From a virus: a DNA stretch of 56,618 nucleotides. The position numbers and the translations under genes are program-made. Under the pieces are notes generated by a model. It did no database searches, had not been told where the DNA came from, and saw only the letters and a list, made by a program, of their open reading frames with translations. The DNA is taken from the UHGV virus genome UHGV-2050067; one strand, given 5' to 3'. Position 1 is the first letter of the stretch; every line of letters starts with the position of its first letter. Below, piece by piece: positions 21,650 through 21,949 of this stretch.

Positions 21650-21678
21650 TTGTGGGTCGAAAACAAACAGATTAAAAT
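21650..21678 (+). promoter_or_regulatory. candidate late promoter (pR'-like) upstream of the lysis cassette
   Basis: TTGTGG, 17 bp, TAAAAT; immediately followed by a terminator hairpin and then the holin RBS. Confidence 0.35.
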
Positions 21679-21706
21679 ATTCTCTAACAATGCGAAACTG
21701 TAACTA

Positions 21707-21728
21707 CCCGGCCCCGCGCCGGGTTTTT
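21707..21728 (+). terminator. rho-independent terminator (tR'-like) just upstream of the holin gene
   Basis: cccggc-cccgc-gccggg hairpin followed by ttttt; holin SD GGAGG begins 8 nt later. Confidence 0.55.
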
Positions 21729-21748
21729 GCTTTGTTGGAGGTAAATCT

Positions 21749-21949
21749 ATGTTCGACAGAATACGGGAGGCGTGTGCGTATGTGACTGGTGCAGTAACCG
21801 CTTTTTTCGGTGCTATAACCATCAATGACGTCGCTGTTTTCGTTGGTATCTTATCAACCATAGGCACATTTGCCGTTAATTATTACTTCAAATCACAGGA
21901 GAACAAGCGGGCGCAAGAGGAACACGACGCGCGAATGGGGAATAAGTAA
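21749..21949 (+). CDS. holin (class II / pinholin-like, two TM helices)
   Basis: 66 aa; two hydrophobic segments then charged C-terminus ([15 protein letters not shown]); SD ggagg; immediately precedes the endolysin. Confidence 0.7.

Follow-up and report, generated by a model that had tools for sequence, protein, structure and literature searches.

A predicted lambda-type qut site in front of the holin gene, kilobases from the Q antiterminator gene, in an mEp021-like temperate coliphage

The virus genome UHGV-2050067, the whole 56,618-nt stretch of which is referred to here as the window, contains a short non-coding region in front of its holin gene in which a late promoter, a pause element and an intrinsic terminator are predicted on the plus strand. 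We consider it likely (probability about 0.7) that this is a lambda-type qut site functioning like that of lambda, its promoter being -35-poor and its leader about 45 nt long. The assignment of Q to its family, the geometry and conservation of -10 hexamer, pause box and terminator, the separation of the site from Q and the presence of downstream terminators were derived from sequence and comparison, whereas analogy with lambda underlies the proposed start and pause sites, the Q-binding site and the dependence on Q. The preliminary description had likened the region to a pR'/tR' arrangement for processive antitermination; this likeness is supported by the Q family, the geometry of the elements, a PWM and conservation, i.e. 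by sequence and comparative evidence only.

The region showed about 90% identity to the Escherichia phages mEp554, mEp044, mEp010 and mEp021, and the window is, judged from its sequence, an mEp021-like (mEpimmI-group) temperate coliphage. The four phages form the "mEpimmI" group of Nus-dependent, non-lambdoid temperate coliphages, which according to the published description need both N-like and Q-like proteins and were reported to be as common as lambdoid phages in the human gut (PMC11893012). The annotation of mEp021 lists, in this order, a putative late gene regulator Q (gp37), eight small genes, "TERM_5", a class II holin (gp46), a lysozyme and a lysis protein. A literature search yielded neither a description of a late promoter of mEp021-type phages nor transcript mapping of the site. 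Q and the terminator are already annotated in mEp021, while the promoter/pause element and the split layout are undescribed in the searched literature.

The tR'-like intrinsic terminator (21706 to 21736) consists of a stem of 7 bp, six of them GC, closed by the loop CCCGC and followed by the tail TTTTTGCTTTGTT; the hairpin ACCCGGC-CCCGC-GCCGGGT occupies 21706-21724 and is followed by TTTTT up to 21728. Exactly 20 nt separate the end of the T-run from the ATG of the holin gene at 21749, and the GGAGG SD sequence lies at 21737-21741, so that the GC-rich hairpin, T-run and holin SD named in the preliminary description were all recovered. The hairpin, located between the predicted pause site and the first late gene, was the top-ranked terminator-like site in 14-30 kb, and a 71-nt segment folded at -30 kcal/mol (z = -5.35) with none of 200 shuffles being equally stable. 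Among 34 unique sequences of relatives, variation in the terminator was confined to the loop and the stems were constant, the stem being partly fixed by the search pattern. TERM_5 of mEp021 (GenBank TERM_1-5 numbering) falls on the homologous hairpin. A figure legend in PMC11893012 lists t1, t2 and t5 as experimentally shown terminators of mEp021, and the TERM_5 hairpin is probably this t5.

Upstream of the terminator, the -10 hexamer TAAAAT (21673 to 21678) matches the sigma70 consensus in 5/6 positions and was invariant in the 34 unique relatives. The -35 candidate TTGTGG (21650 to 21655), at a spacing of 17 nt, matches in only 3/6 positions and is not conserved; genomes carry either TTGTRG or TCGCGC at this position, and the distant relative L107 has AAGCGC. 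A canonical -35 is therefore probably absent. Of the TTGTGG-17-TAAAAT promoter in the preliminary description, the coordinates and the conserved -10 thus stand, with the -35 hexamer varying among relatives. An extended -10 TG was also absent at this site in the window and the relatives compared, and without it and without a conserved -35 the basal promoter strength is uncertain. The promoter pair, with 8/12 matches, falls under the scanner threshold of 9/12, and scanning at 9/12 gave about 30 hits per 16 kb in shuffled sequence compared with 19 observed; on its own, the promoter call is no better than chance. It rises above chance because the -10 and the AACAAT hexamer downstream are invariant in relatives and their combination fits the lambda-type qut signature. 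Other promoter-like matches between Q and holin (18347, 18624, 20380 and 21540) were rejected as chance-level matches in variable coding sequence.

The hexamer AACAAT (21686 to 21691) begins 7 nt after TAAAAT, the window reading TAAAAT-attctct-AACAAT-gcg. At lambda pR' the sequence is TTGACT-17-TAAATT-tgactc-AACGAT-ggg, in which AACGAT, at +1 to +6, serves as the sigma-dependent pause element. This assignment is consistent with the published work on lambda Q (PMC9388147). By its lambda-like layout, its invariance and the PWM, AACAAT is predicted to be a sigma70-dependent pause element at about +1 to +6; as a -10-like hexamer 6-7 nt past the -10 it is recognized by sequence match. The preliminary description lacked this diagnostic box, with which the layout becomes that of lambda pR' (-10, 6 nt, AACGAT). 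The box is followed by GCG in the window as against GGG usually in the family. Transcription is predicted to start at 21685/21686 and to pause near 21700, at roughly +16; the terminator stem would then extend from +21 to +39, and release at about +44 to +47 would give an RNA of about 45 nt in the absence of Q.

The spacer AAACAAACAGAT (21661 to 21672) directly in front of the -10 is conserved as well, with 9 of its 12 columns being invariant. Its invariant AAACAAAC..GAT portion upstream of the pause box is a candidate Q-binding element, the role of the spacer being proposed by analogy with lambda (PMC9388147). An AAACAA motif 19 nt upstream of the pause box is common to the window and L107, the Q proteins of which are 48% identical. 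A resemblance of GATTAAAAT to GAATAAAAT in the lambda QBE region was dismissed as coincidence, given that the spacing to the pause box differs (7 vs 16 nt) and that the motif is missing in L107. Directly upstream of the conserved core, at 21642-21660 and in relatives, two sharply different haplotypes occurred (GCCGTATTTGTRG.. and CCATAATCGCGCATAA..). The break between them at about 21660, unlinked to the Q subtype, marks a recombination boundary inside the putative promoter.

A set of classical lambda-type Q loci was used for comparison, comprising 80 loci from GTDB genomes of other species plus prophages of Citrobacter, Pantoea and Serratia; 62 classical prophage loci had enough sequence downstream of Q. 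The strict signature [TC]A[ATC]3T-N6-7-AAYRAT was present 27-66 nt past the Q stop in 32/62 of these, and most or nearly all of the remaining loci had close variants at the same place. The classical sites show pyrimidine-rich discriminators (..CTCT-AACGAT-GGG), and their first terminator stem often starts from +24 to +44, compared with +21 here. A terminator right after the pause site is therefore the norm of the family, and the 194-nt leader of lambda the exception. The regex signature, with a chance rate of 0.064 per kb per strand, occurred once and directly after Q in lambda and in the Citrobacter, Pantoea and Serratia prophages. A single occurrence was also seen in each of mEp021, L107 and the window, always in front of the holin gene, with none in the 2-4.5 kb between Q and holin. 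On the whole plus strand the simple signature had 4 occurrences vs 3.6 expected. Searching the window with up to three mismatches gave no second copy of the motif, and no other qut-like site was found, be it in the stretch from Q to the late genes or in the rest of the window.

A PWM was derived from 41 unique Q-adjacent sites of the classical type, all of them from outside the mEpimmI phage group. Its best score on both strands of the 56.6-kb window was at 21673 with 18.3 bits, followed by 10.9 bits for the next match, and 18.3 bits was reached anywhere in 56.6 kb by 1.8% of 500 shuffles. The holin-upstream site was likewise the top plus-strand match in mEp021, L107, L117, L003 and L005. Since the training sites had been picked with a -10/N6/AAYRMT regex, the PWM test is independent with respect to location and flanks, not to the core pattern. 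A further match to -10/N7/AAYRAT, TAAAAT-aattctc-AATAAT-ggcg at 29867-29890 (+), is preceded by GAAAAACAGG, which resembles the holin-upstream spacer. It is located inside the 427-aa ORF 29073-30356, is followed by no terminator and is conserved at or below the level of coding sequence; it is probably a chance match.

Conservation was assessed in the 34 unique sequences, which came from Q-ascertained loci, and in 46 IMG/VR loci with Q proteins 83-99% identical. The motif GATTAAAAT-N5-CTAACAATGCG was present in exactly one copy, 3.0-6.7 kb after Q, in 44/44 of the Q-ascertained IMG/VR loci with enough sequence. In the 34 unique sequences TAAAAT and AACAAT were each invariant in all six positions; comparison scores were 0.78 for the "-35", 0.64 for the upstream ORF and 0.90 for the third codon positions of the holin gene. 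The -10/pause-box/terminator architecture also persisted in genomes with Q only 48-75% identical. L117 (Q 75%) reads TAAAAT-atcctc-AACAAT, with a 6-nt spacer and the upstream ORF ending within the -10, and L107 (Q 48%) reads TATAAT-tccctc-AATAAT, 3 kb after Q, with a different hairpin from about +24, an SD and a holin gene. Covariation of the Q subtype (240 vs 242 aa) with the two upstream-sequence variants was not observed, both subtypes occurring with both variants. The variable part is therefore no specificity determinant, and this comparison does not tie Q to the site.

The regulator suggested for the late switch in the preliminary description, the ORF 16504-17226 (+; 240 aa), proved to be a true member of the lambda Q family. 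It matched PF03589 (Antitermination protein Q) with E 4e-30 and had 35% identity with lambda Q along its whole length, residue 1 included (BLASTP, E 1e-48); it also matched the Qλ chains 7UBM/7UBN and 4MO1 in PDB (7UBM chain Q, E 1e-39). Residues G39 and, near the C terminus, T237 (lambda G39 and T206), both sites of antitermination-defective mutants in lambda, were invariant in the alignment. The first 60 residues, which form the nozzle region in Qλ, were among the best conserved parts, and a full-length Q with a conserved nozzle region was kept in every genome compared. In Qλ, the N-terminal part refolds with NusA into a nozzle at the RNA exit channel (PMC9388147). The ORF had earlier been labelled "DnaJ-type zinc-finger"; its DnaJ motif match fell below the Pfam cut-off. 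Its zinc-ribbon arm begins with an insertion of 31 aa (residues about 117-148; 16850-16950 of the window) that adds two CxxC motifs, bringing the arm to four in a DnaJ-like manner. Many Qs of the classical lambda type (Citrobacter, Pantoea, Serratia, Xenorhabdus) have larger insertions at this point of the arm, which in lambda makes contact with both the QBE and sigma region 4. A weak match to the DnaJ CxxCxGxG-type zinc finger (PF00684, E 8e-4), also below cut-off, was given by the second ORF downstream of Q (17353-17763, +; 136 aa).

The qut-like site lies 4,443 nt (about 4.4 kb) past the Q stop in the window and 1.9 kb past it in mEp021. In 50 relatives the distance was 1.9-6.7 kb, as against 27-66 nt in classical prophages, and the site is thus not adjacent to Q. 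The earlier remark that no Q gene is adjacent was correct as to the distance; far from being peculiar to this genome, the separation is fixed throughout the mEpimmI group. Its members have 10-27 small plus-strand ORFs of variable content directly after Q, with no gap in between, and there was likewise no gap after Q in L114 (Q 45%). The ORF list of the window contains about 17 tightly packed small ORFs between Q and the site (17223 to 21641, +), whose content and length vary in annotated relatives. The ORFs before the holin gene are nearly contiguous, 21642-21748 being the only clear non-coding stretch; 20052-20150 is possibly non-coding, depending on the start codon. We infer that the early transcription unit, which contains Q, also includes the block of small ORFs. 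A strong terminator-like hairpin (AAGCGGG-ATAAAA-CCCGCTT followed by T6) was noticed at 19145-19164 (+), 18 nt inside the small ORF 19127-19360. Despite the otherwise variable block, 51 of 52 related loci had this segment, and the hairpin in it was essentially the same. It has no boxA before it and is therefore unlike a nut site.

Downstream of the site, the SD sequence and the holin gene (21737 to 21949, +) open the late operon. The ORF 21749-21949 encodes an HP1-family class II holin (PF16080, E 7e-15), and an endolysin/lysozyme (PF00959) and an Rz spanin (PF03245) complete the lysis cassette (21951 to 22900, +). All large ORFs between the holin gene (21749) and about 48.5 kb have plus-strand orientation. 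Within this long operon a strong intrinsic terminator lies at 31887-31907 (+), just past the 349-aa ORF 30819-31868, and further strong terminators were found at 38737-59, 40127-47 and 48558-78 (+); processive antitermination would therefore be needed. A moderate hairpin with a U-run (AAAACGG..CCGUUUUU, -13.5 kcal/mol) was seen at 23068-23100 (+) in the 268-nt gap after Rz. Its position corresponds to the TERM_6 gap of mEp021, but TERM_6 may instead match a hairpin at 23021-23047; the 23068-23100 hairpin would be the first terminator met by Q-modified polymerase beyond tR'. The 463-aa ORF 26805-28196 (+; 12093-13466 in L003), located after the large terminase gene, is annotated as 'portal protein' in mEp021 and matches Phage_portal_3 in L107. 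In E. coli prophages RefSeq/PGAP calls it 'anti-CBASS protein Acb1 family protein', a name that is probably an artefact.

Folding of the transcribed region revealed a long two-tier helix (21681-21741, +), in which UCUCUAACAA/GCGAAA, ahead of the terminator, is paired with UUUUGC/UUGUUGGAGG behind it. The helix buries the holin SD in read-through RNA, and an analogous extension was present in L107; possible roles are to stabilise the 5' end of the late mRNA or to hide the SD when early transcripts read through. In both clades the initially transcribed bases pair with the U-tract and the 3'/SD flank, so part of their conservation could serve RNA structure and not sigma binding. Low weight was given to the idea that the pyrimidine-rich discriminator, present only in read-through RNA, masks the holin SD, which pR'-initiated RNA would leave free. 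The prediction fits L107 (probability of being unpaired 0.09 vs 0.85), but in the main clade it was weak or reversed (0.01 to 0.21; 0.38 to 0.21), and the CU-rich discriminator is a family-wide trait. A search of Rfam gave no match at the gathering score, only a sub-threshold hit to rnk_pseudo (20.6 bits vs 55, E 0.68). A nut site, i.e. a boxA/boxB pair consisting of a GCTCTTTAA-like boxA and a short purine-loop hairpin, was not found at 21650-21750; the terminator hairpin has a pyrimidine loop and a U-tract, not a purine-rich loop of the boxB type. The sequence TTCTCTAACAAT was rejected as a boxA/nut candidate, as the likeness exists in this genome only (relatives have ACCT or TCCT) and no boxB accompanies it.

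In the proposed mechanism, sigma70 RNA polymerase would start at about 21685/6 from a promoter set mainly by the -10 TAAAAT, and sigma region 2 would re-bind AACAAT in the initially transcribed DNA, causing a pause at roughly +16. Without Q, the polymerase would run into the hairpin and U-tract from +21 and free an RNA of about 45 nt, 20 nt before the holin ATG. Once accumulated, Q may bind immediately before the pause box, where the invariant AAACAAAC..GAT spacer is the candidate DNA site, and Q and NusA would join the paused complex and build the nozzle at the RNA exit channel. The Q-modified polymerase would then pass the terminator at 21706 and those at 31.9, 38.7, 40.1 and 48.6 kb, and the read-through would lead to expression of the lysis, packaging, head and tail genes. 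The terminator at 21706 may double as the end of the early operon, extended past Q through the variable small genes.

The main rival to this reading, which we regard as unlikely, is that the site is a terminator only. The hairpin would then be the end of the early right operon ('t5' of mEp021) without a promoter, early transcripts that the N-like Gp17 and its nut sites have made resistant to termination would reach the lysis and late genes, and the conserved upstream bases would serve an extended terminator helix or another role in RNA. In the early operon of mEp021, the N-like Gp17 and three nut sites are described as carrying transcription through terminators (PMC11893012), and the experimental characterisation of this system is cited there (Valencia-Toxqui et al. 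2023). These nut sites, the experimentally shown t1, t2 and t5, the coincidence of TERM_5 with the hairpin, the absent or weak -35 and the pairing of the initially transcribed sequence with the U-tract flank all agree with such a view. It leaves unexplained, however, that the best match to the qut profile is found exactly here in six related genomes, that TAAAAT is invariant outside the helix, and that full-length Q with a conserved nozzle region was retained in every genome; a boxA/boxB pair is also missing from the site.

Even less probable, in our estimate, is a promoter with an attenuator that is not loaded with Q, i.e. a -35-less promoter which is either weakly constitutive or served by another activator, with a leaky terminator limiting holin expression and Q acting elsewhere, at some unrecognised site. 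Promoters that depend on an activator typically lack a -35, and the Q subtype and site variant did not covary; but the window offers no other qut-like site on which Q could act, a pause box at +1 to +6 with the spacing typical of the family would have no role, and the internal terminators of the late operon would still need a processive factor. That AT-rich hexamers have come to stand beside an ordinary terminator by chance is very improbable. The promoter pair, at 8/12, was below a threshold that is itself at chance level, and the simple signature was about as frequent on the plus strand as expected; against this stand the invariance in 34 unique sequences, the persistence with changed sequence in genomes with Q 48-75% identical, and the top rank of the site in the PWM search.

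The favoured reading, a lambda-type qut site, can be compared with several known systems. As in the lambda Q/pR'-qut-tR' cassette (PF03589; 7UBM/7UBN, PMC9388147), to whose Q the protein is homologous over its full length, the -10 is followed after 6-7 nt by a -10-like pause box (AACGAT in lambda, AACAAT here), and then by a terminator, the holin-endolysin-Rz genes and a long late operon with internal terminators. In cassettes of the lambda type the Q gene is described as 'adjacent' to the pR' transcription unit (PMC9388147), lying about 80 nt upstream in lambda, whereas it is 4.4 kb away here and 1.9-6.7 kb away in relatives. The site also differs from that of lambda in lacking a TTGACT-type -35, in a leader of about 45 nt instead of 194 nt (6S RNA) and in a spacer, the putative QBE, that is unrelated to the lambda TGAATAAAAT; the Q arm has two extra CxxC motifs. 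Classical Enterobacterales lambdoid prophages (e.g. L110 Citrobacter, L112 Pantoea, L115 Serratia, L132 Enterobacter) share the ..CTCT-AACGAT-.. consensus with its pyrimidine-rich discriminator and the very short leader, with stems often from +24 to +44, and many of their Qs have insertions in the zinc arm. Their sites, however, lie 27-66 nt past the Q stop and have a recognisable -35 (TTTACT/TTGACA), whereas the present site is kilobases off and has none.

In Stx phages, the constitutive pR' gives rise to a short terminated RNA, StxS, in lysogens (PMC7547250). The likeness to this pR'/tR' consists in a late promoter terminated immediately downstream and in accessory genes around the junction of Q and late promoter; in Stx phages, however, the stx cargo lies downstream of pR'/tR' and is Q-dependent, while the cargo block here is upstream, between Q and pR', and an sRNA function of the RNA of about 45 nt, unlike that of StxS, is only a possibility. 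The Gp17/nut system of mEp021 belongs to the same phage group, also acts by processive antitermination and faces the same terminator with its early transcripts; it is an RNA-site (boxA/boxB) system, unlike the site at 21650-21750, where such a pair is lacking.

A wider, tentative reading joins these observations, and we hold it to be rather doubtful as a whole. A hypervariable island that places 10-27 small accessory genes on the early operon would have separated Q from its loading site by 2-7 kb, and one terminator would serve both as early-operon stop and as tR'. The -35-less promoter may need Q or another factor for initiation, and the hairpin RNA of about 45 nt may act in lysogens, as StxS does.

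The analysis points to where the late promoter and qut site of the mEpimmI coliphage group, both undescribed so far, would lie. In textbook accounts Q and pR' form a single cassette of adjacent elements, and a preference for acting in cis is classically ascribed to lambda Q; here, a lambda-type Q appears to have been kept kilobases from its loading site across a whole phage lineage. The -10/N6-7/AAYRAT/terminator profile may provide a simple annotation route to late promoters that do not lie beside Q. The conserved separation and the variable island would offer a natural test case for the role of adjacency in Q loading, for how early read-through is kept from the lysis genes, and for the need of a Q-loaded promoter for a -35.
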